From an uncultured Clostridia bacterium (GTDB taxonomy: Bacteria > Bacillota > Clostridia > TANB77 > CAG-508), in NCBI GenBank assembly GCA_944390335.1, contig CALXQA010000001.1, positions 1 to 55,696 of the forward strand: 55,696 nt of DNA, in the 5' to 3' direction. Positions 1 to 21,370 of the stretch are shown one piece after another. Made by a program: the position numbers and the translations under genes. The stretch's first letter is position 1. Every line of letters starts with the position of its first letter. Below the pieces are notes generated by a model. That model was not told the origin of the DNA. It was given only the letters and a program-made list of their open reading frames with translations, and made no database searches.

Positions 1-317
1 GCCCAATAATATAGTATCCTTTTTATTAAATTCTTTTTCTCTGTCATTTGCATTTCTATATTACAATATTCATTATTATTTATTTTCGCTAATACATCTA
101 CTACTCCTAGCTTTCCTTCTGGCAATTCTTTTTTTAATACTATATTCGGTTCTAAACTTATATCTATTATTTTCTCATCTAGTATTGTACTTAGAAAATC
201 TTTTGTTATATTTTCACTTCCTTTTTCTCCAAATAATATTTGAAATATTACATCTATTTTTGGTGATAATAATTCTTTTGTTTCTTCTTTTTTTCCTTCT
301 TCTATTTTATATGACAA
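1..317 (-). CDS. Rpn-family (YhgA-like, PD-(D/E)XK / transposase_31) recombination-promoting nuclease, N-terminal 105 codons; continues beyond window edge
   Basis: Own translation of minus strand from TTG at 317 (GGAGG 6 nt upstream): SYKIEEGKKEETKELLSPKIDVIFQILFGEKGSENITKDFLSTILDEKIIDISL..GVVDVLAKINNNEYCNIEMQ..RILYYW. The start pattern and the D..E-x-Q nuclease core fit the family. Absent from the ORF track because it is open at the window edge. Confidence 0.6.
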   Translation of the reverse strand, partial: MSYKIEEGKKEETKELLSPKIDVIFQILFGEKGSENITKDFLSTILDEKIIDISLEPNIVLKKELPEGKLGVVDVLAKINNNEYCNIEMQMTEKKNLIKRILYYW

Positions 318-603
318 TATTTTCCTCCTTTTATTTTTTGTTTTATTTTTTTATTTCTTTTTTCTTTATCTTTTATATTGAAAATTTAAGAATAAAAAAT
401 TTGAATAAATTAATTATATTAGGTTTTGAAATAACAGATTAGATGATAAATTTAATAATAAATTTATTATATATCCTAAATTACTAAATTTTAAGATTTT
501 TTCATTGACATAATTCGACTTAATTTTCATAAATTCATAAATAAAACTACATACTTTAGTTTTATCTAAAATATGCAGTTTATTTTTTATAATATTTTTA
601 TTA

Positions 604-2079
604 TTATCTACCCACATAATTACAGTAGTTTTGTATCATAGCTGCTGCTTCTGCTCTTATTGCTGTTCCTCTTGGGTCTGTCATTGTTCCGTTTACTTTT
701 CCGCTCATTACTTTTTTCGCTACTGCCCATGATATACTTTCTTTTGCATAACTTGATATTCCATTTTGGTCTTTAAATTTAGATAGATCAGCTCTACTAC
801 TTGTATCTTTTCCTTTAAATCTAGCATAATTCATTAGTATTGTTGCTAATTGTTCTCTTGTTATATTATTATTTGGTCTAAATTTTCCATCTTCGTATCC
901 ATTTACTATTCCTTTACTTCCTGCCCAATTTACTGCATCATAGTAGTACTCTTGACTTTTTACATCACTAAATTTTTGACCTTCTTGTGATTTTGGACTT
1001 CCTTCCATTCTCCATAATATTGTAACTAAGTTTGCTCTTGTTAGATTGTTATTTGGTGAAAATGTTGTGTCTGATGTTCCCATTATAAGCCCATTATTAT
1101 AACAATATTCTACTGAGTCAAAATACCATGTATCTGCTCCTATATCATTAAAATGCGACTTTTTATATACTATAAGTGGACATTCATATTTTTTGCTTCC
1201 TAACATAGTATATACTTTTGTTTCTCCTACTTTTAGACCAGTTATATCTCCATTTTCATCTATACTTGCTATACTCTTATCTTCAATTTCCCATTTAGCT
1301 GAAGGTATTGTAACTGACGTTCCCCATGGATTTCCTATCTCTTGCTTTATTCCTATATCGCATACTTCAGATATATTTGTTTTATTACCAACTTTAATTG
1401 AATTTGATTTTCTTGAAGTTATGTAATCGAGTTCATCTAAACATGCACTTACTTCATAATCGTCATATTGATATGGTAGTTCCTCACCTAATTCAAATTC
1501 TTCTGGTTCATTTTTTCCAAAACCGAATATATAGAATAATCCTCCTCCATTAGGATTATAAACTATTCCTACTCCTAATGATTTATATTCTGGATTTAAT
1601 ATATTCTTCTTACTTTCTGGGATTTCCATTAATCTATTAAAAATTTCTTCTGTTCCAAGTCCCCATCCCATCTCTTCTGCATCTAAGTTTTTATTTACTG
1701 AAAAACACATTTCTCCATTAGGTCTTACATGGTTCCATCTTACAATTGATTCTATTGCTCTTGTTTTCATCGCTTCCATTAAACCTTTATCTAATTTTAC
1801 TTCTGGCACTCCTGCTTTTCTTCTTTCGTAATTGATTTTATTGCATAAACTTGTCCAACTATTAGGAGCTACTGAATAACCCGCATATTTATATATAGTT
1901 GTTAGCTCTCTTGTATTTTCACTGTCTGTATATCCACTATCTTCTCTATTTACTCCATGTATTACATAATTAAATTCTGGTCTATTATTTGCTGCTTTTG
2001 TTGTATTTATATTTGAAAGCACAATATATACAGCTATAATTATTAATCCTATAATTAATAATTTTAACTCTTTTTTCAT
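604..2079 (-). CDS. SLH-anchored secreted protein 1: signal peptide + CAP/SCP (PR-1/YkwD-like) + Big_2 Ig-like + 3 SLH repeats
   Basis: 491-aa ORF with AAGGAG RBS. Hydrophobic N-terminus LLIIGLIIIAVYIVL..TKA. CAP-like RRKAGVPEVKLDKGL..VRWNHVRPNGE..LGVGIVYN. Big_2-like IASIDENGDITGLKVGETKVY. C-terminal SLH triplet: FNDIG..WY, FSDVK..YYYDAVNWA..GIVNGYEDGKFRPNNNITREQLA, ISSYAKESISWAV. Confidence 0.85.
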   Translation of the reverse strand: MKKELKLLIIGLIIIAVYIVLSNINTTKAANNRPEFNYVIHGVNREDSGYTDSENTRELTTIYKYAGYSVAPNSWTSLCNKINYERRKAGVPEVKLDKGLMEAMKTRAIESIVRWNHVRPNGEMCFSVNKNLDAEEMGWGLGTEEIFNRLMEIPESKKNILNPEYKSLGVGIVYNPNGGGLFYIFGFGKNEPEEFELGEELPYQYDDYEVSACLDELDYITSRKSNSIKVGNKTNISEVCDIGIKQEIGNPWGTSVTIPSAKWEIEDKSIASIDENGDITGLKVGETKVYTMLGSKKYECPLIVYKKSHFNDIGADTWYFDSVEYCYNNGLIMGTSDTTFSPNNNLTRANLVTILWRMEGSPKSQEGQKFSDVKSQEYYYDAVNWAGSKGIVNGYEDGKFRPNNNITREQLATILMNYARFKGKDTSSRADLSKFKDQNGISSYAKESISWAVAKKVMSGKVNGTMTDPRGTAIRAEAAAMIQNYCNYVGR

Positions 2080-2118
2080 TAATTTCTTCTCCTTTTATTT
2101 AAAATATAAATATATCAT

Positions 2119-3447
2119 TTATCTACCTACATAATTACAGTAGTTTTGTATCATAGCTGCTGCTTCTGCTCTTATTGCTGTTCCTGATGGATCTGCCATT
2201 GTTCCATTTACTTTTCCGCTCATTACTTTTTTTGCTACTGCCCATGATATAGAGTCTTTTGCATAACTTGATATTCCATTTTGGTCTTTAAATTTAGATA
2301 GATCTGCTCTACTACTTGTGTCTTTTCCTTTAAACCTAGCATAGTTCATTAGTATTGTTGCTAATTGCTCTCTTGTTATATTATTATTTGGTCTAAATTT
2401 TCCATCTTCATATCCATTTACTATTCCTTTACTTCCTGCCCAGTTTACTGCATCATAATAGTACTCTTGACTTTTTACATCACTAAATTTTTGACCTTCT
2501 GCTGATTTTGGACTTCCTTCCATTCTCCATAGTATTGTTACTAGATTTGCTCTTGTTAAATTGTTATTTGGTGAAAATGTTGTATCTGATGTTCCATATA
2601 TTATTTTATTATCTGTACAATATTTTACTGAATTATAGTACCAGTCTGATGTTTTTATATCACTAAAAGGTACTTCACTGCGTGCTACAAACTTATATCC
2701 TAAATCATTTGCTACTTCTTCTGCTACTGTTCCTTTATATCCATATATAGTTAATTGTGATGTTGGTATATCTCCAAAAGCTGTTCCATCTATTGTATTA
2801 TATATAGATTCTATTCCTTTTGGAAAATAAATTTCTTTTAATGTGTCCATATATCCAAAAGACCACATTGATACTGTTTTTACTGATTCTGGTAAAACAA
2901 CTTTTTCTAATCCAGCTCCCTCAAAAGCAGCCCATTCAATTGTTTCTACTGAGTTTGGTATTTCTATACTTTTTAATGATGTACAATGATAAAAAGTATA
3001 TGAATCAATTACCTTTAAGTTCTTTGGTAGTTTTATATTTTTTAATGCACTACACTCAAAAAATGCTTCATATTCAATTGTAGTTACTGAATCTGGTATT
3101 GTTATACTTTCTAAAGATGTACAATTTGCCAAAGCAGCTTGTTTAATACTTGTTACAGTATTTGGAATTGATATTGTTTTTAATTTTGCACAACTTGAAA
3201 AACTTCCTATCCTTGTAACTTTTTTTCCATTGATTGTTTCTGGAATTGTTGCACTTGTAATCTCTGTATTTGCTTTATATACAGTAATTGTACCATCATC
3301 ATTTTCTGTGTAACTTATTTCATTATTGTATGGTATTGGCTCAGGTGGTTTTGTTGTGGCAGCATTAGATATCCCTGAAAATACCCCTAATGCCATTGTT
3401 ATAACTAAGACTAATGTTATAACTGTGATTAAACTTTTTCTTTTCAT
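2119..3447 (-). CDS. SLH-anchored secreted protein 2: signal peptide + BspA-type leucine-rich repeats + 3 SLH repeats
   Basis: 442-aa ORF with GGGAGG RBS and a signal peptide. Repeated IPNTVTSI..A(F/L)..C..L..I.IP.SV..I units typical of LRR_5/BspA. The last 158 aa differ from ORF 604..2079 at only 4 positions. Confidence 0.85.
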   Translation of the reverse strand: MKRKSLITVITLVLVITMALGVFSGISNAATTKPPEPIPYNNEISYTENDDGTITVYKANTEITSATIPETINGKKVTRIGSFSSCAKLKTISIPNTVTSIKQAALANCTSLESITIPDSVTTIEYEAFFECSALKNIKLPKNLKVIDSYTFYHCTSLKSIEIPNSVETIEWAAFEGAGLEKVVLPESVKTVSMWSFGYMDTLKEIYFPKGIESIYNTIDGTAFGDIPTSQLTIYGYKGTVAEEVANDLGYKFVARSEVPFSDIKTSDWYYNSVKYCTDNKIIYGTSDTTFSPNNNLTRANLVTILWRMEGSPKSAEGQKFSDVKSQEYYYDAVNWAGSKGIVNGYEDGKFRPNNNITREQLATILMNYARFKGKDTSSRADLSKFKDQNGISSYAKDSISWAVAKKVMSGKVNGTMADPSGTAIRAEAAAMIQNYCNYVGR

Positions 3448-3563
3448 AATTTCCTCCCTTTATTTTTATTTATATATTTTAGTAATTTAAAACCTTAATT
3501 AAATTTATGTTATTTCGATTTAATATATTTACTTACATTTTTCAATATTATTATATTTATTTT

Positions 3564-4754
3564 TTATCTACCTACATAATTACAATAATTTTGTATCATA
3601 GCTGCTGCTTCTGCTCTTATTGCTGTTCCTCTTGGGTCTACCATTGTTCCATTTACTTTTCCGCTCATTACTTTTTTTGCTACTGCCCATGATATAGAGT
3701 CTTTTGCATAACTTGATATTCCTTTATTATCTACAAATTTATTTAAGTCTGTTCTTTCCCTTGTATCTTTTCCTTTATATCTTGCATAATTCATTAGTAT
3801 TGTTGCTAATTGTTCTCTTGTTATATTATTATTTGGTCTGAATTTTCCATCTTCATATCCATTTACTATTCCTTTACTTGCTGCCCAGTTTACTGCATCA
3901 TAGTAGTACTCTTGACTTTTTACATCACTAAATTTTAAACTTCCTGATACTTTTTGGTTTCCTTCCATTCTCCATAGTATTGTTACTAAATTTGCCCTTG
4001 TTAGATTGTTATTTGGTGAAAATGTAGTGTCAGTTGTTCCCATTATTATTCCATTATCATAACAGTATTTTACTGAATTATAGTACCATACAGTTTCGCT
4101 AACATCTTTAAAAGGTACTTCTTCTATATCATCTACTGGTATTAAAATTACTTCGCTTTCATATGATGGCTCAGTATCTTCTTTATTAGCATACCCTTTT
4201 AATGTTAATTTTTTATTAAATATATCTATTCCACTACCTTTATACCAAACTTCAGACCCCAAGTCTTTGAATGTTACTTCTATTGTTATGTTATATGAAC
4301 CATCTTCTAATTCTTCTACAAAATTAAATCCTGTTCTGTCAAGTAAATTAGTTTTGTATGTATCGTCTGCTATAAGTTCTATTTTTTCTGTCTCTGCTGA
4401 TTTTTCAATATGTAAACCTATATGTGCAAAAAGTTTATTTTGTAATGTACTTTTTATTTCTTTATAGTATTTGTAGTTTTCATCTATCTGGGAATTTTTT
4501 TGTAATTCTCCTATTATGCTGGCTAAATGTACATTATCTTGCATAATATATATATTATTATTGTCTTCTTTTTGTAATTGTTTTATAGGGAAGATTACGA
4601 CTCTATCATCACCTGTGAAATTTTCATTCATAATATTTATTAATTCTTTTGCTGTTTTTGTTTCTTCTGCTGCTTGCACAGTGCAAGAAATCAAACATGT
4701 TATTGTTGTTATTAACAAAATTAAAATAATCGCTTCTTTTATTATTTTTTTCAT
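3564..4754 (-). CDS. SLH-anchored secreted protein 3 (head of unknown family) + 3 SLH repeats
   Basis: 396-aa ORF with AGGAGG RBS. Signal peptide with a Cys-containing hydrophobic region (ITCLISCTVQA). ~210-aa head with no family I recognise. Canonical SLH triplet tail. Confidence 0.8.
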   Translation of the reverse strand: MKKIIKEAIILILLITTITCLISCTVQAAEETKTAKELINIMNENFTGDDRVVIFPIKQLQKEDNNNIYIMQDNVHLASIIGELQKNSQIDENYKYYKEIKSTLQNKLFAHIGLHIEKSAETEKIELIADDTYKTNLLDRTGFNFVEELEDGSYNITIEVTFKDLGSEVWYKGSGIDIFNKKLTLKGYANKEDTEPSYESEVILIPVDDIEEVPFKDVSETVWYYNSVKYCYDNGIIMGTTDTTFSPNNNLTRANLVTILWRMEGNQKVSGSLKFSDVKSQEYYYDAVNWAASKGIVNGYEDGKFRPNNNITREQLATILMNYARYKGKDTRERTDLNKFVDNKGISSYAKDSISWAVAKKVMSGKVNGTMVDPRGTAIRAEAAAMIQNYCNYVGR

Positions 4755-4785
4755 CTAACTTTCCTCCTTTTTTTATTTTAATAAG

Positions 4786-7413
4786 TTATCTACCTACATA
4801 ATTACAATAATTAGTTATCATAGCTGCTGCTTCTGCTCTTATTGCTGTTCCTGATGGGTCAACCATTGTTCCGTTTACTTTTCCGCTCATTACTTTCTTA
4901 GCTACTGCCCATGATATGCTATCCTTTGCATAACTTGATATTCCTTTATTATCTACAAATTTATTTAAGTCTGTTCTTTCTCTTGTATCTTTTCCTTTAT
5001 ATTTTGCATAATTCATTAGTATTGTTGCTAATTGTTCTCTTGTTATATTATTATTTGGTCTGAATTTTCCATCTTCATATCCATTTACTATTCCTTTACT
5101 TGCTGCCCAATTTACTGCATCATAATAATACTCTTGGCTTTTTACATCACTAAATTTTGAGCTTCCTGATACCTTTTTGCTTCCTTCCATTCTCCATAGT
5201 ATTGTAACTAGGTTAGCCCTTGTTAAGTTGTTATTTGGTGAAAATGTGGTATCTGTTGTTCCATATATTATTTTATTATCTGTACAATATTTTACTGAAT
5301 TATAGTACCAATCAGATAACTTTATATCTCTAAATGGCATTTCTGGTTTTAGTATGCTTACTGTTTTTTCTACATAACAAGCTTTATAATTGTCAGATGG
5401 TGGAATACTTACATAAACTTCATATTCTCCTATTTCTGTAGGTACAGAATTACTTGACCACATAGATCCAACTTCTCCATAAAAGAACTCGACCTGAACA
5501 TTTGTGGGGTTTTTGGTTATTACTGGTGTAAGTTTGCCTTGTCCATATATTATATCTTTTATTTCAAAATCAAATTCTCTTTCTGCTTTCTCTATTTCAT
5601 ATTCTGCTGTAGCTGTTCCTGTATAGCTTCCATTTCCTTTTACAGTTACATTCTTAGTTCCTGCATTTGTTACATCACTACTATATGTTATTGTATAGTC
5701 TTGGTTAACTTTAAGTATTTTACTTCCATAATATATTGTTACATTTGGTTTTTGTGCTGTTTTATTATATGTAAATTTGTCAGTATTTAGAGTGATCATT
5801 CCGTTTGATATAGGAATTGCATTATTTGTGCTAAATTTAATACTATTATTATTTGCATATTCTTGTGCTTTAGAACCTTCTGTTCCATATATTGTTAAAT
5901 TATAGCTATCTTTAAAAGCCTTATTAGCTATATTGGTTATACTGCTTGGCACTTTTGCGACATATAGTTTTGGATTCCAATAAAAAGAATATTCATCTAA
6001 TTTGGCAGTGCATCCATCTTCTATTATTACACTGCCTAGTTCATTACATTGTGAAAATGCATCTTCTCCAATGCTTGTTACAGTTTTTGGTATTGTTATT
6101 CCTCTTATTGTAGAATAATGAAAAGCATCTCGTCCTATCTCTGTTAGTCCCTGATTGAGCACAATGTTTTCTATATTATGTTCATAAAATGCATATGGAT
6201 TTATTGTCTTTAATGTACTAGGAGTTACTAAAGATTTTACTTCTTTATTAGGCATTAAGCACATTAATATAGTTTTATTTTTGTCATATATTACATTATT
6301 TTCTACTACCAAATTCTTAGAATTAATAGTTAAATTATTTAAATTAGTACATCCTTCAAAAGCCCTTCCTCCAATATATTCTACATTTTCTGGTATTACT
6401 AATGATGTAAGCTTATTACAATTTAAAAATACAGCTTCTCCTATTTTTTCTATTGTTTTTGGAAGTGTTACGCTTAATACTTCTGTCTCACCATAAGCAT
6501 TTCCCCAATAAAATGCATCTGCATCAATCATTGTTACTTTTTTTCCATTTATTTCTTCTGGAATTACTATATTCCCATCAAATCCATTATATTGTCTTAT
6601 ATTTATTGTTCCATCGGCTCTAGTAGAATAATATAATCCATATGGCTGTTCTGTAACACTATAGTATCTTGGTGCTTTTTCATTATATCCTGCTTCTGCT
6701 ATATATACTTTCCCATCTATAAGTACAGATACATTTCTATGTCCACTTCCTGCTCCTGGGTCTATTGCAGCATACCTTAATTGAGATTTTAAACCAACCA
6801 TATTGCACATTTCTATTATGCAATATGAACTTGCCCAGCAGTCTCCTCCTCCACTTAAAATCATCCCTTGATAGCTTGATGCATTTGCTGAATAGTCATA
6901 ACTTGCTACAAATTCGCAAATTTTTTTTAGCTTATCTAAATTAGACATATTACTAGTTATATTTTTATTTATGTATTCTTGCAGTACATTTTTAGAATAA
7001 TAATTTACATAATTTATAACATTAATAGTTATATTAAAAGTACTTCCTGCGACTGTAACTTTTATTTTAGCAGTCCCATATTCATACTTTTTATATGTTC
7101 CTGTTATACTTCCTCCTACATATGTAACATTTTGATATTTAGGTTCTACTAAGCCATTCTCACTTACACTTACAATATCTTGACCTTCTATCACTTCATA
7201 TTTAGCTTTTTCTGTTGTTCCATTTATTTTTATTTGATAAGTAGTTGGATATTCACTTGGTAGAGTTACAGAATATGCTTTTGAAATATATCCATCTATT
7301 TGATAAATGTCTACAGAAGTTTTTTCTACTGAAATTGCAGCATTTGATTTTATATTAAATATAACTAATATAGAAAAAACAAATATTAAACTTATACATA
7401 ACTTTTTATACAT
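4786..7413 (-). CDS. SLH-anchored secreted protein 4: transglutaminase-like Cys protease core + BspA-type LRR + Ig-like repeats + 3 SLH repeats
   Basis: 875-aa ORF with GGGAGG RBS and a signal peptide. GGGDCWASSYCIIEMCNMVGL...GSGHRNVSVLIDGKVYIAEAG resembles the Cys/His transglutaminase core. LRR_5-like units (ITLPKTIEKIGEAVFLNCNKLTSLVIPENVEYIG...). Ig-like FTYNKTAQKPNVTIYYG..YTITYSSDVTNAGTKNVTVKGNGSYTG. SLH tail. Confidence 0.8.
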   Translation of the reverse strand: MYKKLCISLIFVFSILVIFNIKSNAAISVEKTSVDIYQIDGYISKAYSVTLPSEYPTTYQIKINGTTEKAKYEVIEGQDIVSVSENGLVEPKYQNVTYVGGSITGTYKKYEYGTAKIKVTVAGSTFNITINVINYVNYYSKNVLQEYINKNITSNMSNLDKLKKICEFVASYDYSANASSYQGMILSGGGDCWASSYCIIEMCNMVGLKSQLRYAAIDPGAGSGHRNVSVLIDGKVYIAEAGYNEKAPRYYSVTEQPYGLYYSTRADGTINIRQYNGFDGNIVIPEEINGKKVTMIDADAFYWGNAYGETEVLSVTLPKTIEKIGEAVFLNCNKLTSLVIPENVEYIGGRAFEGCTNLNNLTINSKNLVVENNVIYDKNKTILMCLMPNKEVKSLVTPSTLKTINPYAFYEHNIENIVLNQGLTEIGRDAFHYSTIRGITIPKTVTSIGEDAFSQCNELGSVIIEDGCTAKLDEYSFYWNPKLYVAKVPSSITNIANKAFKDSYNLTIYGTEGSKAQEYANNNSIKFSTNNAIPISNGMITLNTDKFTYNKTAQKPNVTIYYGSKILKVNQDYTITYSSDVTNAGTKNVTVKGNGSYTGTATAEYEIEKAEREFDFEIKDIIYGQGKLTPVITKNPTNVQVEFFYGEVGSMWSSNSVPTEIGEYEVYVSIPPSDNYKACYVEKTVSILKPEMPFRDIKLSDWYYNSVKYCTDNKIIYGTTDTTFSPNNNLTRANLVTILWRMEGSKKVSGSSKFSDVKSQEYYYDAVNWAASKGIVNGYEDGKFRPNNNITREQLATILMNYAKYKGKDTRERTDLNKFVDNKGISSYAKDSISWAVAKKVMSGKVNGTMVDPSGTAIRAEAAAMITNYCNYVGR

Positions 7414-7437
7414 AGCATCCTCCCTTTTATCTTTTTA

Positions 7438-10065
7438 TTATCTACCTATATAATTACAATAATTAGCTATCATAGCTGCCGCTTCTGCTCTTGATGCAGT
7501 TCCAGCTGGATCTATTCTTGTACCATTTACTTTTCCACTCATTACATTTTTAGCTACTGCCCATGATATAGAGTCTTTTGCATAACTTGATATTCCTTTA
7601 TTATCTACAAATTTATTTAAGTCTGTTCTTTCCCTTGTATCTTTTCCTTTATATTTTGCATAATTCATTAGTATTGTTGCTAGTTGTTCTCTTGTTATAT
7701 TATTATTTGGTCTGAATTTTCCATCTTTATATCCATTTACTATTCCTTTGCTTGCTGCCCAGTTTACTGCATCATAATAATATTGGTTTTTAGTTACATC
7801 TACAAACTTCTGATTATTTCCTTCTACTTTACTTCCTTCCATTCTCCATAGTATTGTAACTAGATTAGCTCTTGTTAAATTATTGTTTGGTGAAAATGTT
7901 GTATCTGTTGTTCCATATATTATTTTATTATCTGTGCAATATTTTACTGAATTATAATACCAATCTGCCTCTTTTACATCTTTAAAAGGAAATGGAGTTT
8001 CTTTTTTAGTAATCGTTATTTTTATTATTTTTGTAACATCTCCACATGTAACAGTTATATTTGTGCCACCTTCTTTTATCCCTGTTATTAATCCATCTTG
8101 TCTTATTGTAGCTATATTTTTATTATCTGAATTAAATGTTATTATTGAATTTCCTCCATTATCTGGTACAGTTTTTGCATTTATTTTATATGTTTGTCCT
8201 TCTTGTATATTTACACTTGCTGTATTTAAATTAATATCTGTTACAGGACTTATATCTTCTGAATATAAATCTTTAAATACACTTCTATATGTATAATCAA
8301 TTAATTTTCCCGTTCCATCATCTACATTATGTATTGTTATTTCAAAAACATCTCCATTTCTATATGCTATTGTATCATCTTTAAAAGTTAATTGTTTTGA
8401 GTCTACTGCTCTTAATAATTTTCCGGACTCATTTTTATTTGCTTGAGTTATATTATATATTTTTCCACTATTTAAGCATTTTATTGTTACTTCCGTTTTT
8501 GCTGATACTTTATAATTGTTATAAAATCTAGCTGTCCAATTCCCAATTCCATTAGAGACCATATTTAGTGGGAATATACCATTGCTTGGCCATGCTACTA
8601 AATCTACTTTATTATAGTTTGATTCTGGTGAAAATTTATGAACTGATTGTATCATCATAGAAAGACCTTCCCCTGCTAATCCTATTCCCCATTGTGTATT
8701 ACTAGGTTCTAATAAATTATATCTATGTCCACAACCTATTGAGTCTCCTTGTGTATCATTAAGTGCATTTGATATACTTGTTTGTGGATTGCCATTATAT
8801 AGATTTTCAACCATATATTGTTGTGCTTTATTATAGTAGTCATCACTAAGTTCAGATGGTTTTTCTGGATAGTGTCCGCCTTGAAGTCCATGTGAACTAT
8901 TATATAAAACTAAAGTTGCCTTTGCCTGTGCACTTTCCACTATACTACTATTTAATTTTACTTCTGAAAGTCCCATTCCTACTCTTGCTACATTTAAATA
9001 ATCATTACTTACCTGTAATACACTATCATTCATTTTTCCTGCAGTAATCGGCATATTATCATATTCAGGTTCTACATCAAAATAGCTATTATTATTTTTT
9101 TCAAAAAAGTCATTTGCTTTTTCTGTACTTTCTCCTAATTTATTATATGCTACTTTTGCCTTTGCTAATAGTTCTTGTTCTCTTTCAGTTAATGCTACAC
9201 TTTTTGTTTCTTCTGAAAAATTAGGATCTATGAAAGTTATTGTTAGTTTTGCTTTTATTGGACTTTCACTAGTTATATCTAAATCATAAAATAAATATTT
9301 ATAATTTTCTGCTTTTGTATAATTTTTAGAATATTCTCCTATTCCTATTGGGTTTGGAAGATATGTATAAAAATCAAGTGTTCTACTCATTATTAAACTT
9401 ATATATTTTGCACTTCCAGTATTTATTCCATAATTATATAAATCTGTTCCATTTTCTTTTAATTGCTCATTAGTATAAAACAAATCCTCATCTATACTTG
9501 TTTGTGTAAAACTATATCCAAATAATTTTGCAAGTATTTTACTTACTATAATTGTATGCTTTTGCAAATCATATAAATAACTATTATCATTTTTATATCT
9601 ACCCCAATAGTTATTTACATCTTGTGTGCTACAATTATATTCATATATTCCTATTATGTTATTTGAATCATCTGTCATTGTACTTCCTGATAAATATGAT
9701 ATATATGGTGATTCTTTTCCTCCATATGAATATTTCTTTGTTACAAAATTTCCTCCTATAGCACCAAATCCTTTTATTTTTCCTGATTCATCTGTTTCAA
9801 TATTTAAATACCAAGTTAGATTATTATCATAATATGAATATGCCTTACCACCAAAAGCAGATTTTCCTTCTACTTTTGGCGTTCCAAACTTACTGTTTAT
9901 TTGTGCTATTGTTGTATTTTTAGTTATTGTATATCCATTAAATTTTATTAAATCATCTGCATTAAGTCCATTGTTACTTGATGTTGCTAATGATATTGTT
10001 GGCACTATATAAGCCATAATAATTACTGTTACAAAAATTGTTAATATTATTTTTAGATTTTTCAT
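7438..10065 (-). CDS. SLH-anchored secreted protein 5: large head with CAP/SCP-like domain + Big_2 + 3 SLH repeats
   Basis: 875-aa ORF with GGAGG RBS and a signal peptide. CAP-like YLNVARVGMGLSEVKLNSSIVESAQ..GHYPEKPSE..GCGHRYNLLEPSNTQWGIG. Big_2-like ITFNSDNKNIATIRQDGLITGIKEGGTNITVT. SLH tail. Confidence 0.8.
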   Translation of the reverse strand: MKNLKIILTIFVTVIIMAYIVPTISLATSSNNGLNADDLIKFNGYTITKNTTIAQINSKFGTPKVEGKSAFGGKAYSYYDNNLTWYLNIETDESGKIKGFGAIGGNFVTKKYSYGGKESPYISYLSGSTMTDDSNNIIGIYEYNCSTQDVNNYWGRYKNDNSYLYDLQKHTIIVSKILAKLFGYSFTQTSIDEDLFYTNEQLKENGTDLYNYGINTGSAKYISLIMSRTLDFYTYLPNPIGIGEYSKNYTKAENYKYLFYDLDITSESPIKAKLTITFIDPNFSEETKSVALTEREQELLAKAKVAYNKLGESTEKANDFFEKNNNSYFDVEPEYDNMPITAGKMNDSVLQVSNDYLNVARVGMGLSEVKLNSSIVESAQAKATLVLYNSSHGLQGGHYPEKPSELSDDYYNKAQQYMVENLYNGNPQTSISNALNDTQGDSIGCGHRYNLLEPSNTQWGIGLAGEGLSMMIQSVHKFSPESNYNKVDLVAWPSNGIFPLNMVSNGIGNWTARFYNNYKVSAKTEVTIKCLNSGKIYNITQANKNESGKLLRAVDSKQLTFKDDTIAYRNGDVFEITIHNVDDGTGKLIDYTYRSVFKDLYSEDISPVTDINLNTASVNIQEGQTYKINAKTVPDNGGNSIITFNSDNKNIATIRQDGLITGIKEGGTNITVTCGDVTKIIKITITKKETPFPFKDVKEADWYYNSVKYCTDNKIIYGTTDTTFSPNNNLTRANLVTILWRMEGSKVEGNNQKFVDVTKNQYYYDAVNWAASKGIVNGYKDGKFRPNNNITREQLATILMNYAKYKGKDTRERTDLNKFVDNKGISSYAKDSISWAVAKNVMSGKVNGTRIDPAGTASRAEAAAMIANYCNYIGR

Positions 10066-10104
10066 TTATCCTCCACTGCCTTTTTTTATAAATCTTTTTA
10101 ATTT

Positions 10105-11193
10105 TTATCTACCTACATAATTGCAATAATTAGCTATCATTGCTGCTGCTTCTGCTCTTATTGCTGTTCCTGATGGATCTACCCTTGTACCATTTACTTT
10201 TCCGCTTATTACTTTTTTAGCTACTGCCCAAGATATAGCGTCCTTTGCATAACTTGATATTCCTTTATTATCTACAAATTTATTTAAATCTGTTCTTTGA
10301 GATGTATCTTTTCCTTTGAATTTTGCATAATTCATCAGTATTGTTGCTAACTGTTCTCTTGTTATATTATTATTTGGTCTGAATTTTCCATCTTCATATC
10401 CATTTACCACATTGCTTTTCTCTGCCCATTTTATTGCTTCATAATAGTACTGGTCCTGCTTTACATCACTGAATCTTTGGTTTCCTGTGACTTTTGGTTC
10501 TCCTTCCATTCTCCATAGTATTGTAACTAGCATTCCTCTTGTTAGCTTTCCATTCGGATTAAATGTATAATCATTTATACCATATATTATTTTATTGTCA
10601 TTATTAAATTTTACTGAGTTATAATACCAGTCTGATTTTTTTACATCTGTAAATGGTATTACGTTGTATATTTTTACTGTGTCTTTAACTTTAAACGAAT
10701 TTACTATTCCATTTTTTTCTGAACTATTTAGGTAACTTTCATTTTGTGTACCTAACATTATAACATAAACATAATTATCTGAATTTACTACATATATTTC
10801 ACCATACATAATTCTAAATGTTGATGTATCTTTAAATTTTAGTCTCATACCTTTATATCCGTTTTGTTCTATTATATTTGATGATATATATTCATACCCT
10901 TCTCCATATGTTTCTTCAAAAAAGTTTTCCATATATTGCATGAATAGCTCATTTATTTGTATTCCATTATTTTCATATTGCCCTGGTACTGAACTTTCTA
11001 TTGATAATGCTATTGTATTGTTGCTATTCATACTTGCTAGTGTATATTGTGTCTTTTCTGTTATAAAACTATCTGGTACATTTACTTTAAATGTGTCTGT
11101 TTCATATTCTTTACCTTTTGATACTGTTGCACTTATAAATAATATAGCCAATATAAATATTATTGTTAAAATAACTTTATTTTTTGTTTTCAT
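10105..11193 (-). CDS. SLH-anchored secreted protein 6 (small head of unknown family) + 3 SLH repeats
   Basis: 362-aa ORF with AAGGAGAG RBS and a signal peptide. ~150-aa head that I cannot assign. SLH triplet (FTDVKKSDWYYNSV.., FSDVKQDQYYYEAIKWA.., ISSYAKDAISWAV..). Confidence 0.8.
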   Translation of the reverse strand: MKTKNKVILTIIFILAILFISATVSKGKEYETDTFKVNVPDSFITEKTQYTLASMNSNNTIALSIESSVPGQYENNGIQINELFMQYMENFFEETYGEGYEYISSNIIEQNGYKGMRLKFKDTSTFRIMYGEIYVVNSDNYVYVIMLGTQNESYLNSSEKNGIVNSFKVKDTVKIYNVIPFTDVKKSDWYYNSVKFNNDNKIIYGINDYTFNPNGKLTRGMLVTILWRMEGEPKVTGNQRFSDVKQDQYYYEAIKWAEKSNVVNGYEDGKFRPNNNITREQLATILMNYAKFKGKDTSQRTDLNKFVDNKGISSYAKDAISWAVAKKVISGKVNGTRVDPSGTAIRAEAAAMIANYCNYVGR

Positions 11194-11233
11194 AATTTTT
11201 CTCTCCTTTTATTTTCTTTTTTATTTTTATATC

Positions 11234-12586
11234 TTATTTACCGATATAATTACAGTAATTAGCAATCATAGCTGCTGCTTCTGCTCTTGAAGCATTTCCT
11301 GATGGATCTACTCTTGTCCCATTTTCTTTTCCACTCATTACTTTTGTTGCAACTGCCCAAGATACTCCGTCCTTTGCATAACTTGATATTCCTTTATTGT
11401 CTATAAACTTATTTAAGTCTGCCCTTTTTGATGTATCTTTTTTATTATAATCTGCATAATTCTTTAGTATTGTTGCCAATTGCTCTCTTGTTATATTATT
11501 ATTTGGTCTAAATTTTCCATCATCATATCCATTTACAACTTTATTTTTCTCTGCCCACTTTATTGCTTCATAATAATATGCATCTTGTTTTACATCACTA
11601 AATTTTTGCTCTCCTGAAATTTTAGGACTTCCTTCCATCCTCCAAAGAAGCGTTACTAGATTTCCTCTTGTTAAATTTTTATTAGGAGAAAATGTTGTGT
11701 TTGATGTTCCATATATTATTTTATTAGTTGCACAATATATTACTGAGTTATAGTACCAATCATCTTCATTTACATCATCATAGCTTACTATTACTCTAAT
11801 GCTTGCAGTTTTATCTCCTATTGTAGCATTAATTGTGGTTTCACCACAACTTACTCCTGTTACCATTCCTGTTTGATCTACTGTGGCAATATTTGTATTT
11901 GAACTTGACCATTTAGCATTTTTCCCATCTATTATAAGATAACCTATTCCCATGTCATACCATAGACCTTTATCACCTTTTCCTCCAACTTTTAATTCTA
12001 TAGGTGCTTTATTAACAAATCTTATATCTATAATATATTTATTTAATATCTCTATAGTATAATACTTTTCTATTGTATCACTTCTTCTTACTACTTCTTT
12101 TGGTTCTTCTATACCAAAACACTGTACCCAAGATGTTTTTCCACTTACTATAATGTGACCTATTCCAATAGTAGTGAAATCTTTATTTAATATATTACTT
12201 CTATGACCTGGAGAGCCCATCCAGCTTTTCATAACTCTTTCAGGAGTAATCTGGCCTTTTGCTATATTCTCTCCAAAAAGCTTGTCACTTACAGTATTAC
12301 ACATACTACCATCTGGTCTTATATGGTTACCATATAGACTAATTTCTGCTGATCTTTGCAATGCCGCATTTAGTAAATCTTCATCCATTACTAAAGGATT
12401 TGCTCCTACTTTTGCTCTTTCCTCATTTACTAAGTCTAATAATTTATAAATGTAATCATAATTATGGGTTGCTACGAAAAAAATCTTTGAACTATCATTT
12501 GTCTCTGATGCTTTTACAAAAACTGTTCCAAAACTTAACAGGAAAATAAATAGAATTAAAATACTATTCCTTATACTTTTTAACAT
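11234..12586 (-). CDS. SLH-anchored secreted protein 7: signal peptide + CAP/SCP (YkwD-like) + Big_2 + 3 SLH repeats
   Basis: 450-aa ORF with AAAGGGGA RBS. CAP motif LVNEERAKVGANPLVMDEDLLNAALQRSAE..GHIRPDGS..SWMGSPGHRSNILNKDFTTIGIGH. Big_2-like WSSSNTNIATVDQTGMVTGVSCGETTINAT. SLH tail. Confidence 0.85.
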   Translation of the reverse strand: MLKSIRNSILILFIFLLSFGTVFVKASETNDSSKIFFVATHNYDYIYKLLDLVNEERAKVGANPLVMDEDLLNAALQRSAEISLYGNHIRPDGSMCNTVSDKLFGENIAKGQITPERVMKSWMGSPGHRSNILNKDFTTIGIGHIIVSGKTSWVQCFGIEEPKEVVRRSDTIEKYYTIEILNKYIIDIRFVNKAPIELKVGGKGDKGLWYDMGIGYLIIDGKNAKWSSSNTNIATVDQTGMVTGVSCGETTINATIGDKTASIRVIVSYDDVNEDDWYYNSVIYCATNKIIYGTSNTTFSPNKNLTRGNLVTLLWRMEGSPKISGEQKFSDVKQDAYYYEAIKWAEKNKVVNGYDDGKFRPNNNITREQLATILKNYADYNKKDTSKRADLNKFIDNKGISSYAKDGVSWAVATKVMSGKENGTRVDPSGNASRAEAAAMIANYCNYIGK

Positions 12587-12610
12587 ACTTCTTTATCCCC
12601 TTTCAACTGT

Positions 12611-12639
12611 ATTATATATGTTTATATAATTTTTTTCAA
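12611..12639 (-). promoter_or_regulatory. SigmaA-type promoter heading the SLH array (TTGAAA-17-TATAAT)
   Basis: Minus strand reads TTGAAA aaaattatataaacata TATAAT, about 25 nt upstream of the ATG at 12586. The gaps between six of the seven genes are only 24-40 nt. Confidence 0.55.
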
Positions 12640-12767
12640 TAGAATTACATAAAGATTTTTAAATGTAATATTTAGAAAAATAAGATGCTAATTTCAAAGT
12701 TCTTTACCATTTTTTATAATAGATCTACATATTTTATTTCTATTACTAAATGGATCTTTGTATATAC

Positions 12768-12810
12768 AAAAAAAAAGCTATGTGCTAATTTTTATCCATT
12801 AACACATAAC
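12768..12810 (-). terminator. Rho-independent terminator downstream of the Rpn gene
   Basis: 13-bp stem (gttatgtgttaat / attagcacatagc on the minus strand, 2 G-U pairs), 8-nt loop, followed by a U9 tract. Confidence 0.6.
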
Positions 12811-12840
12811 TTTTTTAGTTTTACTATTAAATTATATTAA

Positions 12841-12951: not shown

Positions 12952-12979
12952 TTTCTTTGTATTCTCTCTTTTTTCTTCT

Positions 12980-13777
12980 TTACGTCCGCTCTTCTATTCC
13001 TGACTCTTTACCTTCTTTTTTTCCTTTTTCTTCTGCATATGCCACTGCTGTATCATAATTAAATTTTGCCATCGCTCTTGCTTCTATTATTTCTCTTTCT
13101 TTTGGATCTGACATTATTTCTTCTACTAATTTCATTGCTTTTTGTACTTCTGGGTTATTTAGCTTTGACATTTTTACTTTATCCTCCCTTCCTATTATTA
13201 AGTATAGCCACTCTTCTAATTTTGTTTTTATTTCTGGATTTTTCTTTATAAACTTTGGTAATTCTATAAAGTGCATTTCTAATGCATCTGTTGCTATTTC
13301 ATCTTCTTTTTCATATCCCAATTTTACATATTCTTCTTTTTTAGTTTTCTCAAACTTCATATGTGCTATTAAATGATAACTATTCCTTTTATATCTATTA
13401 AAATTTAGTATATTTATTACTATTGATGGTTTTAAATTTTGATAATCTTCTCCCACATTTATTTGTGTTGATATATTTTTACTCATATATACTGTACTTC
13501 TTTTGTCTATATTTCCTTCATCTTTTACTTGCATTTCTATATCTATCAGTCTTTCATCATTTAGTTTTGCTCTTATATCTAGTACGCTTCCTTTTTCTTC
13601 TAATATATCTTTTGGTATCTCTGCATTTAATACTTCTACATTTCTTAATTTCATATCCAGTACTGCTTCTAAAAAATCTTTCAGTATTCCATTTGGACTA
13701 CCTTTGGTAAATGTTCTTTTAAATATATAATCATTTAAAAGCGGTGCATCTTCTCTTATTATATTATTTTTCGTCAT
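12980..13777 (-). CDS. Rpn-family (YhgA-like, PD-(D/E)XK) recombination-promoting nuclease / putative transposase
   Basis: LLNDYIFKRTF.., VLDIRAKLNDERLIDIEMQV (D..E-x-Q core) and ELPKF are typical of the family. Start moved to the ATG at 13777 (AAAGGA RBS) because the track's TTG at 13819 is the -35 hexamer of the promoter. Confidence 0.8.
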   Translation of the reverse strand: MTKNNIIREDAPLLNDYIFKRTFTKGSPNGILKDFLEAVLDMKLRNVEVLNAEIPKDILEEKGSVLDIRAKLNDERLIDIEMQVKDEGNIDKRSTVYMSKNISTQINVGEDYQNLKPSIVINILNFNRYKRNSYHLIAHMKFEKTKKEEYVKLGYEKEDEIATDALEMHFIELPKFIKKNPEIKTKLEEWLYLIIGREDKVKMSKLNNPEVQKAMKLVEEIMSDPKEREIIEARAMAKFNYDTAVAYAEEKGKKEGKESGIEERT

Positions 13778-13790
13778 CTTTTTCCTTTCC

Positions 13791-13819
13791 ATTGTATCAA
13801 ATACTATTCTTTTTTTCAA
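13791..13819 (-). promoter_or_regulatory. SigmaA-type promoter of the Rpn gene (TTGAAA-17-TACAAT)
   Basis: Minus strand reads TTGAAA aaaagaatagtatttga TACAAT, immediately upstream of the RBS and the ATG at 13777. Confidence 0.5.
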
Positions 13820-14173: not shown

Positions 14174-14179
14174 TTATTT

Positions 14180-15067
14180 CTATTTCAAATATTCATATAT
14201 TTTATCTATTATTTTATTATCTAATTTCTCATTAAACTTTCTTGCAAAAAAGAAATTATCTAAATTAATTAAATATTCAAAATCTTTTTCCTTCCATACA
14301 TAGGGCTTTTTATCTTTCCATTCTATCTTCCTTAAAATAGAAATATAATTATCATCAAATCCTTTATAATATAATCTATCTTTAAACTCGTTATTATTAT
14401 ACACTAGTGTTTGAAGAAAAACTTCATCACCACAAAATGTTCTTTTGTATTTTTTTACTATTCTTTCTTCATTTTCTACAATATATTTAGCCAAATCATT
14501 TGGAATACTAAACCAATTAGCCCCACTCTTTATTATGTCCGTATTATTTTTTAGCCTATTAACTCTAAATAACTTTTGAAGTAATAAAAAAGACTTAAAA
14601 AATGCGTATTTTATAACTTTTTCTAATCCTTTTTTCTTTCTAAAATCAGTAGCAATATAGTAATACTTAATTCTTTCATCTATACCTTCATAATCATCAT
14701 CTTTTCTAAAATGGATAAATATTTTTCCAATATTTTTATTAAAGAACTCATGAATATCTTGTTGTTTTTTTAGTGGCATATCAAAACCTGATATTAAATG
14801 ATAATATTCATAATTATTTTTCACTGACTCTTTTAAAAGTACAAGTTCAGCTTGTATCTGTGAAAAGCTTCCCCAAGTTACTTTTACTCTATCTGTAAAA
14901 ATAACATTAGATTTTTTCATATGTTCTAGCAAGTGTTCTTTATCTAATTTACTTTTTTTATCAATATGAACATATATATCATTTTCTTCATAATCTAATA
15001 ATTGTAATAACTTATTTAACTGTTCAAAATTATTATGTGCCATTATAAGGTAAGCATGTTTTTTCAT
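14180..15067 (-). CDS. Glycosyltransferase family 14 (core-2/I-branching, Branch-type) protein
   Basis: MKKHAYLIMAHNNFEQLNKLLQLLDYEENDIYVHIDKKS is the typical N-terminus of Branch/GT14 enzymes. Start set at the ATG with an AGGTGA RBS (track start 15076 is a GTG inside the RBS). Confidence 0.7.
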   Translation of the reverse strand: MKKHAYLIMAHNNFEQLNKLLQLLDYEENDIYVHIDKKSKLDKEHLLEHMKKSNVIFTDRVKVTWGSFSQIQAELVLLKESVKNNYEYYHLISGFDMPLKKQQDIHEFFNKNIGKIFIHFRKDDDYEGIDERIKYYYIATDFRKKKGLEKVIKYAFFKSFLLLQKLFRVNRLKNNTDIIKSGANWFSIPNDLAKYIVENEERIVKKYKRTFCGDEVFLQTLVYNNNEFKDRLYYKGFDDNYISILRKIEWKDKKPYVWKEKDFEYLINLDNFFFARKFNEKLDNKIIDKIYEYLK

Positions 15068-15088
15068 TATTATCACCTACTTTTTTAC

Positions 15089-16498
15089 TTATCTTTTTGC
15101 AAATTTATCTTTTACAGCTTTATATAGAAAGCTTACATTTTTTAAATTGATACATACTGCATATATTGTAATTAATAATGCTACTATAATACTTAATATA
15201 TTGTTGTTCAAATAATATGATACTAATGTAATTATTGTACCTATAATCATTGATATAACTATTTTTTTATCCACTTTTAGTTTTACATACTTCCTAGAGT
15301 CTATAAACCTATATATAAACATAACAAGCCAAGATATAACTGTAGAAAGTGATGCTGCATATAAACCTATAAAGTTTATTAAAGCTAAATCTATTACTAT
15401 ATTTATAATTGCTGTTACTAGTGAAATTTTAGCTATTTCTTTAGATAATTTTTTAGCCACATATATAGTTCCTAGAAAGCTAACTAATATATTAAACATT
15501 GTTCCAATTATTAATATTGGTATTTGCATATATGCTTCATTATAACTTTCATTTACTAAAATGCTAAATGCAAATGGCATAAATGCTATAATTCCTAAAC
15601 ATAATGCTCCAAAAAATCTTACTGTTACATCAAATATTTTACTAAAATATTCGTCTTTATCTTCACTTTTAAAGTTTACAGAAACAGATTCTGTCCATGT
15701 TATATTAAAAACACTATAAATTGTGGTTACAACTGATGAAAATTTATTTGCAACTGAATAAATTCCATTCATTGATACATTCATAAAATATGTAATTATC
15801 ATTCTATTAGATACATTTACAATCCACCAAGATATTGCATTTGGTATTAATGGAAGAGAGTATTTTAAAAGTTCTTTTAATACTGTTTTGTCATAATATA
15901 TTCTCTTTACCTTTTTATATAATTTCATTGAAACAAATATATATATTATGCATACTATATTTCCAATAAGGTTTGCATATAGCATACCATATGCACCTTG
16001 TTTAAATCCTGCAATTAATATAACATTTAAGACTATAGTTGCTACACCTGATAAAAAACTTCCTATTGTATATTTTGTATTATTTCCAAGTCCTCTTGCT
16101 ACTTGAAGAAGTATATTTGTGCATGATGTTGCTATTAGGTTTGTTGCTAAAAAATATTTGTATTCATTATTTATCCATGGGCTAACTACTAAAAATATTA
16201 CCATATATATAGCAACTTGTCTTAATACAAAAAATGTAATTGTAGTTATTAGCTTTTTTTGCCCTTCTTCATTGTCTCTGCTATCTATTAAAAACCTAAA
16301 TATACCTTGGTCTACTTGAAATGTAAGTATTGGTATTAATAGACTTATTAAAGTGTTAAGTAAGTCTACTACACCATATTCTGTTGTTGTTAAATATGCT
16401 GTATATAAAGGTAATAGGAAAAATGATACAAGTTGTGTACATACTTTTCCTATTGTTACAATTGCTGTGTTTTTTATTAAAGTTCTTTCTTTAGACAT
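15089..16498 (-). CDS. Wzx-type oligosaccharide flippase (MOP superfamily polysaccharide biosynthesis protein)
   Basis: 469 aa, about 12-14 hydrophobic helices. N-terminal LIKNTAIVTIGKVCTQLVSFFLLPLYT pattern typical of Wzx/PST flippases. Confidence 0.75.
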   Translation of the reverse strand: MSKERTLIKNTAIVTIGKVCTQLVSFFLLPLYTAYLTTTEYGVVDLLNTLISLLIPILTFQVDQGIFRFLIDSRDNEEGQKKLITTITFFVLRQVAIYMVIFLVVSPWINNEYKYFLATNLIATSCTNILLQVARGLGNNTKYTIGSFLSGVATIVLNVILIAGFKQGAYGMLYANLIGNIVCIIYIFVSMKLYKKVKRIYYDKTVLKELLKYSLPLIPNAISWWIVNVSNRMIITYFMNVSMNGIYSVANKFSSVVTTIYSVFNITWTESVSVNFKSEDKDEYFSKIFDVTVRFFGALCLGIIAFMPFAFSILVNESYNEAYMQIPILIIGTMFNILVSFLGTIYVAKKLSKEIAKISLVTAIINIVIDLALINFIGLYAASLSTVISWLVMFIYRFIDSRKYVKLKVDKKIVISMIIGTIITLVSYYLNNNILSIIVALLITIYAVCINLKNVSFLYKAVKDKFAKR

Positions 16499-16542
16499 TA
16501 CTATTCTCCGTTTTATATTTCATATTTACTATATTTTTATCT

Positions 16543-18913: not shown

Positions 18914-18937
18914 GTTTCCTCCTAATATTTTATACTT

Positions 18938-19915: not shown

Positions 19916-19940
19916 CAATTTTATTTCCTTATTATTTTTT

Positions 19941-20819: not shown

Positions 20820-20869
20820 TTTTTTCTCCTTTATGTTCTAGTTCAATTGTTAATATTATGCTTAAATAA

Positions 20870-21355
20870 TTATAATAACTGATTAATTTTATTTTCTATT
20901 GAGTTTATTAAGCTTGTATTATTTTCTTCCCATTTTATTGGTCTATATTCATTTATTTTTTGAATCACATCATATAGTTCATCCATTTCTGTTACAACTG
21001 GTATATTATATTTTTCATGAAATACCTCTGCAAGTTCTAATTGATGATTGTCCACATGTTCTCCAAATTCTTTTCGTCTTGGTACTATAATTATTCTTTT
21101 TCCCATTTTCAAAGAATTTATTATGCTTCCTGTTCCGGAATGTGTAATTATTATTTCTGCATCTTCAGTTATTTTATCAATTTCTTCTTGTGGCTTTAGT
21201 CTAAATGTTTTAAAATTTTTTGGCTGATACTCTTGGCATACATTTTGTACCATTATATCTTCTTTTTTTAATTTATTTTCATCTATAAGCTTATCTAATT
21301 CTTTTAAAATTCTATCGAACTGAAATTTTTGAGTACCTAAAGTGACAAAAATCAT
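20870..21355 (-). CDS. Alg13-like / PssE-Cps14G-type glycosyltransferase catalytic subunit (Glyco_tran_28_C)
   Basis: 161 aa. MIFVTLGTQKFQFDRILKELDKLI..ITHSGTGSI is typical of Cps14G/PssE/Alg13. Confidence 0.75.
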   Translation of the reverse strand: MIFVTLGTQKFQFDRILKELDKLIDENKLKKEDIMVQNVCQEYQPKNFKTFRLKPQEEIDKITEDAEIIITHSGTGSIINSLKMGKRIIIVPRRKEFGEHVDNHQLELAEVFHEKYNIPVVTEMDELYDVIQKINEYRPIKWEENNTSLINSIENKINQLL

Positions 21356-21370
21356 TATTGTTTCCCCCGC

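Follow-up and report, generated by a model that had tools for sequence, protein, structure and literature searches.

The wall proteins of Bacillus anthracis (the csaA-csaB-sap-eag locus and the BSL proteins) and of Paenibacillus alvei (SpaA with CsaB) carry varied heads on a wall anchor of three S-layer homology (SLH) repeats, and their SLH genes lie beside genes for a flippase and a pyruvyl transferase for the secondary cell-wall polymer. In Campylobacter fetus the S-layer genes of the sap locus share a conserved anchor-coding region of about 0.6 kb with variable remainders, recombination occurs between the conserved regions, and a single promoter is moved by DNA inversion among silent homologues in opposed orientations, giving high-frequency switching. 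The cwp cluster of Clostridioides difficile encodes paralogous wall proteins with a common triple anchor and varied heads beside the genes for the anchor-ligand polysaccharide. This locus has been shaped between strains by recombination, and modular anchor evolution together with cassette recombination was described for the Peptostreptococcaceae in a 2025 preprint (10.1101/2025.04.02.646754). The tandem leucine-rich repeat (LRR) surface-protein genes of Listeria monocytogenes (inlC2-inlD-inlE or inlG-inlH-inlE) have similar 3' anchor-coding parts, and recombination has joined the inlC2 5' end to the inlD 3' end to give inlH, at the cost of one gene (PMC3977354). Here we describe an array of seven genes (g1 to g7) for surface proteins with C-terminal SLH tails, located at one end of a 55,696-nt stretch of DNA from an uncultured Clostridia bacterium (GenBank assembly GCA_944390335.1, contig CALXQA010000001.1), the whole stretch being referred to below as the window.

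We consider it probable (roughly 0.7) that the locus is an array of anchored surface proteins whose tails recombine with each other and evolve in concert, through ordinary homologous recombination and not through a dedicated switch. In this model seven secreted surface proteins, chromosomally encoded and probably co-transcribed, would each be fixed to the wall through three C-terminal SLH repeats, and the anchor-coding 3' ends of about 550 nt would act as direct repeats that recombine with each other. Conversion tracts of about 240-380 nt, where measured, would be exchanged mostly between neighbouring tails, and repeated conversion would homogenise the anchors within a genome over time, i.e., concerted evolution. 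An occasional unequal crossover between tails would probably delete or add a whole gene, and the exchange would act on evolutionary and population timescales.

By every testable feature the locus belongs to the class of SLH-anchored wall proteins. Its SLH repeats are C-terminal, whereas those of Sap and EA1 are N-terminal, and unlike the B. anthracis loci it consists of seven head-to-tail genes in a probable operon with no obvious lattice-forming S-layer protein in the array; its pyruvyl transferase resembles CsaB but no more than that (74.8 bits, with a cutoff of 213 bits for the CsaB equivalog), and its host is an uncultured low-GC Clostridia bacterium. The anchor of the C. difficile proteins is CWB2 (PF04122) in place of SLH (PF00395), and there whole cassettes are swapped between strains, whereas exchange here takes place among paralogous anchors within one array. 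The Listeria anchor is likewise not of the SLH type, being made of B repeats and a sorting signal (PMC3977354). Intra-array gene conversion of an anchor module is a known evolutionary process and involves no new mechanism; our literature search returned no account of concerted evolution or gene conversion for SLH domains.

The genes were numbered by window coordinate, transcription running from g7 to g1. A first-pass annotation of the window, made from the DNA alone, had listed seven consecutive minus-strand open reading frames (ORFs) with signal peptides, and the ORFs were found exactly there (604-12586), all complete with a start codon. Signal-peptide-like N-termini were present in 7/7 proteins, as judged from 2-3 K/R within residues 1-8 followed by a 12-aa stretch with Kyte-Doolittle values of 2.9-3.5. 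The common triple-SLH tail was borne out by Pfam, which placed three SLH repeats per protein in the whole set (E 1e-33 to 1e-37), and by the alignment of tail residues 2-176, end to end, to the SLH structure of B. anthracis Sap (6BT4, E 3e-10). The last 183 residues aligned without gaps across all seven proteins. The tail subtype motifs described as following gene position were also recovered. The motifs TR(A/G)N, TREQ and (I/S/T)RAE occupied the three motif positions in all tails of the four species compared here, and a motif of the TRAE type is ligand-binding in the Sap and SpaA structures.

The description of the tails as a near-identical 0.55-kb cassette was overstated, since pairwise DNA identity over the 549 nt was 75-90%, dS (NG86) was 0.25-0.71 and the longest identical run between two tails of the window was 106 nt; dN/dS ranged from 0.19 to 0.50. 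As annotated, the tails of g1 and g2 did show 4 differences over the final 158 residues, corresponding to 26 of 474 nt. The farther apart two genes lie in the array, the lower was the identity of their tails (Spearman -0.68, exact permutation p=0.0004), in line with the annotated likeness of neighbouring tails. The pairing of tails changed along their length: within the first 90 nt g1 was like g3 and g2 was like g4 and g5, and in the middle of the tail g1 paired with g2 and g3 with g4 and g5. The pairwise homoplasy index (PHI), calculated with our own implementation, was 0.262 as compared to 0.362 +/- 0.013 in permuted alignments (p<1/5000, 0/5000 permutations), and a GENECONV-like test with Bonferroni correction returned significant runs for the pairs g3-g5, g2-g4 and g1-g7. 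The seven tails are a mosaic beyond what is expected by chance.

Three relatives were used for comparison between species, L002 and L003 being the closest species representatives found: an uncultured Clostridia metagenome-assembled genome (MAG; L002, tails with about 73% protein identity to those of the window), a MAG from Hadza gut (L003, about 60%) and a mouse-gut MAG (L004, about 55%). The layout of a polysaccharide gene cluster followed by an SLH array was also present in L002 and L003; in L004 the array lies on a short contig, on which no polysaccharide cluster was seen. Orthologues of the heads of g2 (67% identity), g3 (54%), g5 (55%) and g7 (38%) were identified in L002 and one of g5 (40%) in L004. 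Because clear orthologues exist in L002, the different heads are older than the split between the two species. The orthologues in the L002 array follow the order g7, g2, g5, g3, and g1, g4 and g6 are absent; since its order and content differ from those of the window, the array is reshuffled on long timescales. Next to the L002 array, on its far side, the locus ends within a long ORF (L002 14994-20549, more than 1852 aa) that is without a counterpart in the window and may encode a large surface or S-layer protein of that species.

The tails sorted in a different manner from the heads. In the tail tree the seven window tails formed one clade and the four L002 tails another, and the tails of L003 and L004 likewise grouped by genome; the split between window and L002 tails had a bootstrap support of 100% with all sites and of 83% with third codon positions. 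Five residues were fixed in 7/7 window tails against 4/4 L002 tails. The proportion of synonymous differences (pS) was 0.362 between paralogous tails of the same genome as compared to 0.428 between orthologous tails (bootstrap confidence interval of the difference 0.016-0.119, p ~0.002). Identical runs joining adjacent tails reached 282 nt in L003, 144 nt in L004 and 378 nt in L082, a genome of the L003-type species. In this species (L082 and the set L080-L085) one genome had two tail types (58-61% protein identity), its two pairs of SLH genes being split by a gene for a family 2 glycosyltransferase (GT2), and therefore homogenisation occurs only between immediate neighbours. Searching with the tail protein sequence returned 27 short, fragmentary proteins only and gave no overview of the heads that occur on this tail type.

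These data bear on a reading without any recombination, in which the tails would have stayed alike through purifying selection, or through parallel selection for a match with the wall polymer of the lineage. Such a reading would account for the low dN/dS of the tails, for the conservation of the core motifs TR(A/G)N, TREQ and RAE in four species and for the substantial dS between tails, but it does not predict that third positions alone sort the tails by genome, that same-genome tails show less synonymous difference than orthologous ones, or that the mosaic signal is significant. Between strains about 99.4% identical, moreover, 17-47 substitutions were confined to tail tracts of 240-310 nt, one of which makes the g1 tail equal to the g2 tail, a shared derived base included. 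By this evidence from synonymous sites and tracts the reading is already largely refuted, and we regard it as highly improbable.

The tracts came to light in a comparison with another 13 same-species contigs, drawn from various metagenome samples, which were retrieved through exact-protein look-ups and were 98.7-100% identical to the window; the look-up with g1 returned no record. All the sequences are metagenome assemblies, and contig names indicate a low coverage of 3-13x. A metagenome scan added one tiny fragment of the same species (L104) as well as strains of the L003-type species. In 12 of the same-species assemblies (L158 left out) substitutions amounted to 91/46147 nt in the heads (0.20%) and to 112/22205 nt in the tails (0.50%). 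The excess in the tails arose entirely from tract events in g6, in g1 and in the hybrid tail of contig L069, and by arithmetic the tails without the four tract events had 34/22205 substitutions (0.15%), a value at background level.

Event A concerns the g1 tail in assembly L001, which differed from the g1 tail of the window at 17 sites in 312 nt and equals the g2 tail over the tract given in Table 1, an interval in which g1 and g2 of the window (g2 equivalent 2221-2501) differ at 13 sites. The tract includes a derived G at tail nt 396 that was present only in the L001 copies of g1 and g2 and in no tail of the window. Five substitutions at its 5' edge recurred in L070, a contig from an independent sample with another g2-head haplotype, which reaches no farther into the tract than its first sites. 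As read from these assemblies, event A is best described as a predicted gene-conversion tract, with a direction of conversion that we infer. Event B, in the g6 tail, is a dense block of substitutions between the window and L001 in an otherwise identical gene. No donor for it was found among 157 loci, neither version matching any other tail of the array or of these loci, and the tract may have come from an SLH paralogue elsewhere in the genome or from a foreign allele.

The tracts and the deletions described below could in principle be artefacts of short-read assembly across 0.55-kb repeats (switched paths, merged bubbles or a skipped tandem-repeat cycle), in which case the slow, ancient likeness of the tails alone would be real. 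Consistent with this, L001 stops in the g1 tail just where the identical tract ends, as at a collapsed repeat, both deletion junctions lie within stretches over which the tails in sister assemblies show no difference at all, and the coverage of the contigs is low. Against it, the five edge substitutions of event A were present in two independent samples with different g2-head haplotypes, and the window-type g1 tail, together with the order g5 to g1, was reproduced in L158, a contig that is long-read by the style of its name, with a 3-nt g2-like patch in its g1 tail. The g6 tract is unlike any tail of the array and is therefore not an intra-array chimera, and the clustering of tails between species as well as the PHI result are independent of the strain comparisons. 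We therefore hold a purely artefactual origin of the strain-level events to be unlikely. L158 (ERZ21564551 s5279.ctg006722l, 75 kb) is collinear with the window from 9041 to 1 and contains 37 small indels, which split g4, g3 and g2 into short called genes. The single match in a protein search with the g3 head (P0003) was the frameshifted g3 of this contig; P0003 was ruled out as a genuine truncated variant, the fragment being made by the indels.

Taken with the conflict between head and tail trees, the pS difference and the mosaicism, the strain-level tracts uphold the proposal of the first-pass annotation that the tails undergo concerted evolution or gene conversion.

Two contigs are candidates for a change in copy number. 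L069 carries g3 and g2 followed directly by what in the window lies downstream of g1 (hairpin, second Rpn-like gene, PGI) and lacks g1 itself; its tail was of the g2 type at 48/48 diagnostic sites up to nt 438 and of the g1 type at 6/6 sites from nt 465 to the stop codon. L084, from a 182-kb contig of the L003-type species, lacks a gene for a 782-aa protein that is present in L082, and the switch (tail3::tail4) lies within a 378-nt tract in which tails 3 and 4 are identical. Both contigs look like the products of unequal tail-to-tail crossovers, and the inlH fusion of Listeria is the same type of event as the candidate g2::g1 (L069) and tail3::tail4 (L084) hybrids; that fusion was established in complete genomes, whereas the hybrids here are known from metagenome contigs. 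In sister assemblies the tails are perfectly identical across both junctions, and because a de Bruijn assembler can skip a tandem-repeat cycle at such positions, the two deletions are candidates and are not established.

A stronger proposal of the first-pass annotation was that the locus works as a cassette system, the repeats being used to swap heads and to delete or amplify genes, so that the displayed surface repertoire would vary between cells or clones. The direct repeats would be adequate substrates for such recombination (identical runs of up to 106 nt in the window and of at least 281-378 nt in other strains and species), and the two deletion-like contigs, the different gene order and content in the L002 species and the Rpn-family nuclease genes on both flanks of the array are all in keeping with it. 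Between strains, however, the picture was one of stability. Where the array was covered, order and content were those of the window in 12/13 same-species assemblies, among them the long-read contig, no contig spanning all seven genes to the end of g1; the heads were almost invariant (about 0.2%), and no head-swapped chimeras were seen. In the window all seven genes are complete and possess a ribosome binding site (RBS) and a signal peptide, so that there are no silent cassettes. No invertible promoter and no significant inverted repeats were found around 12587-12980, and no site-specific recombinase, invertase or integrase was present in the ORFs scanned, the nearby Rpn nucleases having no known role of this kind. 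The locus is in these respects unlike the sap locus of C. fetus, the genes being co-oriented and complete, each with its RBS, with no inverted repeats or invertible element and with an order that is fixed across strains. Nor does it show the traits shared by programmed systems of the C. fetus sap, Neisseria pilE/pilS or Borrelia vls type, namely a single expression site with silent, incomplete cassettes, a mobile or invertible promoter or a dedicated recombinase, and frequent rearrangement among closely related clones. Both deletion junctions, again, lie where an assembler can skip a tandem unit. The one assembly that departs from collinearity (L069) is possibly an assembly artefact; order did differ in L002. 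A working cassette system is not supported by these data, and we consider it quite improbable.

Several observations weigh against an array of concertedly evolving tails or against parts of that model, and they are gathered here. Homogenisation of the tails is slow, patchy and incomplete, as seen from the dS values of 0.25-0.71, and the tails of g6 and g7 are hardly nearer to the other tails of the array than to those of L002. Errors that repeats induce during assembly could pass for tracts and deletions, and what has been replicated is limited to the edge of the S1 haplotype (two assemblies) and the window haplotype (long read). No donor was found for event B. As regards the single transcript, the 116-nt gap between g3 and g2 could be the site of an internal promoter, and as regards the ligand, the score of the pyruvyl transferase lies far below the CsaB equivalog cutoff. 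We nevertheless prefer an array with recombining tails to the alternatives set out above.

The DNA of the window is AT-rich and chromosomal, with about 27% GC in the array region and 22-29% over its whole length, and it also encodes housekeeping products (Obg, an aminoacyl-tRNA synthetase, LexA, MurB and Lon). The gaps between the array genes are 39, 116, 31, 24, 39 and 40 nt, in agreement with the sizes annotated (24-40 nt and one of 116 nt), with a strong RBS in each, and none of the six contained a terminator-like hairpin; hairpins of this type were found at both ends of the array (Table 1). A consensus promoter had been annotated at the head of the array only. The best sigma-70-like match does lie there, but the number of promoter-like matches in this AT-rich DNA is at the level of chance (97 vs 96.6 in shuffled sequences), and an equally good match is located within g7, which leaves no ground for placing a promoter at the head alone. 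Co-transcription of the array as a single message is plausible from this arrangement.

Table 1. Coordinates of the array genes, recombination tracts, signals and neighbouring genes in the window.
Feature	Position	Strand	Remarks
g7	11234..12586	minus	signal peptide + CAP + Big_2 + 3xSLH, 450 aa; tail 11234-11785
g6	10105..11193	minus	signal peptide + head without known family + 3xSLH, 362 aa; tail 10105-10656
g5	7438..10065	minus	signal peptide + weak CAP_assoc_N/CAP-like region + Big_2 + 3xSLH, 875 aa; tail 7438-7989
g4	4786..7413	minus	signal peptide + Ig-like + transglutaminase-like Cys/His + BspA-type LRR + 3xSLH, 875 aa; tail 4786-5337
g3	3564..4754	minus	signal peptide + head without known family + 3xSLH, 396 aa; tail 3564-4115
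g2	2119..3447	minus	signal peptide + BspA-type LRR + 3xSLH, 442 aa; tail 2119-2670
g1	604..2079	minus	signal peptide + CAP + Big_2 + 3xSLH, 491 aa; tail 604-1155
Event A tract (predicted conversion)	706..986	minus	tail nt 170 to at least 450 (end of contig L001); L001 g1 tail = g2 tail over at least 281 nt
Event B tract, g6 tail	10381..10618	minus	47 substitutions in 238 nt, window vs L001 (751-988); rest of g6 identical
Candidate g2::g1 crossover interval of L069	692..717	minus	g2 equivalent 2207-2232; wider (tail nt 170-464) on the L001 haplotype
Terminator-like hairpin	12771..12816	minus	5' of the array; ends the preceding Rpn-like gene
Candidate array promoter	12611..12639	minus	best sigma-70-like match, TTGAAA-17-TATAAT, 11/12; 25 nt 5' of the g7 ATG
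Terminator-like hairpin	544..581	minus	23 nt past the g1 stop; likely end of the array transcript
Rpn-family (PDDEXK_2) nuclease / putative transposase gene	12980..13819	minus	between polysaccharide cluster and array
Second, divergent Rpn-family gene, 5' part	1..317	minus	just downstream of the array
Polysaccharide cluster	14180..22963	minus	directly upstream of the array, same strand; likely source of the SLH ligand
CsaB-like pyruvyl transferase	16543..17607	minus	PS_pyruv_trans E 7e-29; best NCBIfam match CsaB

The polysaccharide cluster encodes, in the order of the window coordinates and thus in reverse of transcription, a Branch-type glycosyltransferase, a Wzx-like flippase, the CsaB-like pyruvyl transferase, an EpsG-type polymerase, a GT2, a TupA-like ATP-grasp protein, a GT28C and a GT4 fused to an Alg14-like domain. 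A pyruvyl transferase of the CsaB kind is the usual companion of SLH anchors, and the locus is laid out in the manner of csaAB-sap-eag in B. anthracis. Secondary cell-wall polymers that are pyruvylated and made with CsaB serve as ligands of SLH domains (PMC6030368), and the SLH tails of the array most likely bind a pyruvylated secondary cell-wall polysaccharide produced by the upstream cluster; because the pyruvyl transferase scores so far under the equivalog cutoff, we infer this ligand and do not assign it. Between strains the polysaccharide genes had 341 substitutions in 18639 nt (1.8%) as compared to 0.2% in the array heads (14000-19000 and 21000-22600). This divergence was patchy, with pS against L075 of 0.165 for EpsG, 0.144 for the Branch glycosyltransferase and 0.000 for GT2 and TupA, and it looks like the import of recombinant segments into wall-glycan genes with the anchors left unchanged.

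The cluster and the array might form one co-evolving ligand-anchor unit, in which conversion would spread a change that fits the polymer to all anchors at once, a notion we find doubtful. Strains whose polysaccharide genes differ by a pS of up to 0.17 have essentially the same tails, which counts against tight tracking at the strain level, and a co-variation of cluster variants with tail variants among strains was checked and found unsupported. It is more speculative still that the flanking Rpn-family genes, encoding recombination-promoting nucleases, raise the rate of tail exchange. The two Rpn genes are only 28% identical to each other, and they were rejected as the ends of a composite element; L002 has no Rpn gene between its polysaccharide cluster and its array.

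Among the heads, Pfam identified CAP domains in g1 and g7, LRR_5 in g2 and g4 and Big_2 in g1, g5 and g7, in accordance with the two BspA-type LRR heads and the Big_2 modules annotated. Three CAP-like heads had been claimed; those of g1 and g7 stood, and the third, in g5, was weaker than claimed, scoring below the Pfam threshold (17.5 vs 21.1 bits) with secondary support from a weak CAP_assoc_N match and from the CAP region of g7, which matched the g5 orthologue in BLASTP. The transglutaminase-like Cys/His core proposed for g4 was likewise sub-threshold as a sequence match (Transglut_core, 17.7 vs a cutoff of 23 bits) and found its support in structure prediction. An AF2 model of the g4 N-terminal region, built on eight homologues (pLDDT 89), comprised an Ig-like sandwich followed by an alpha/beta domain, and its best matches in the Protein Data Bank (PDB) were transglutaminase-like cysteine proteases (3ISR, 4XZ7, TglA 9CRN and LapG 4FGP; E 4e-4 to 1.4e-2, TM ~0.3 with the two-domain query); Cys192 and His225 were invariant in the 8 homologues. 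Of the two heads annotated as of unknown family, g3 indeed had none and g6 had only a weak CBM-like_2 match. PDB sequence searches with the heads of g3 and g6 and the N-terminal head of g4 returned nothing significant, and a single-sequence AF2 model of the g3 head was discarded (pLDDT 40).

Some variation between strains was also located in the heads. The CAP-containing head of g1 has an in-frame indel of 51 nt between the window (1649-1699) and L001. The LRR head of g2 differed from that of L075 by 26 substitutions in about 415 nt (2995-3409), including a run at 3194-3211, as compared to 0-4 in neighbouring heads, and at least three g2-head haplotypes were present among the assemblies; this variation may result from recombination inside the LRR region.

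Short-read assemblies of such arrays are prone to err exactly at the sites of real recombination, and an apparent gain or loss of genes in SLH arrays needs confirmation by long reads. The SLH tails are unfit for inferring orthology. In this lineage of uncultured gut Clostridia the SLH anchors of neighbouring genes are kept alike by the exchange of 0.2-0.4-kb tracts, and the heads evolve as ordinary orthologues.

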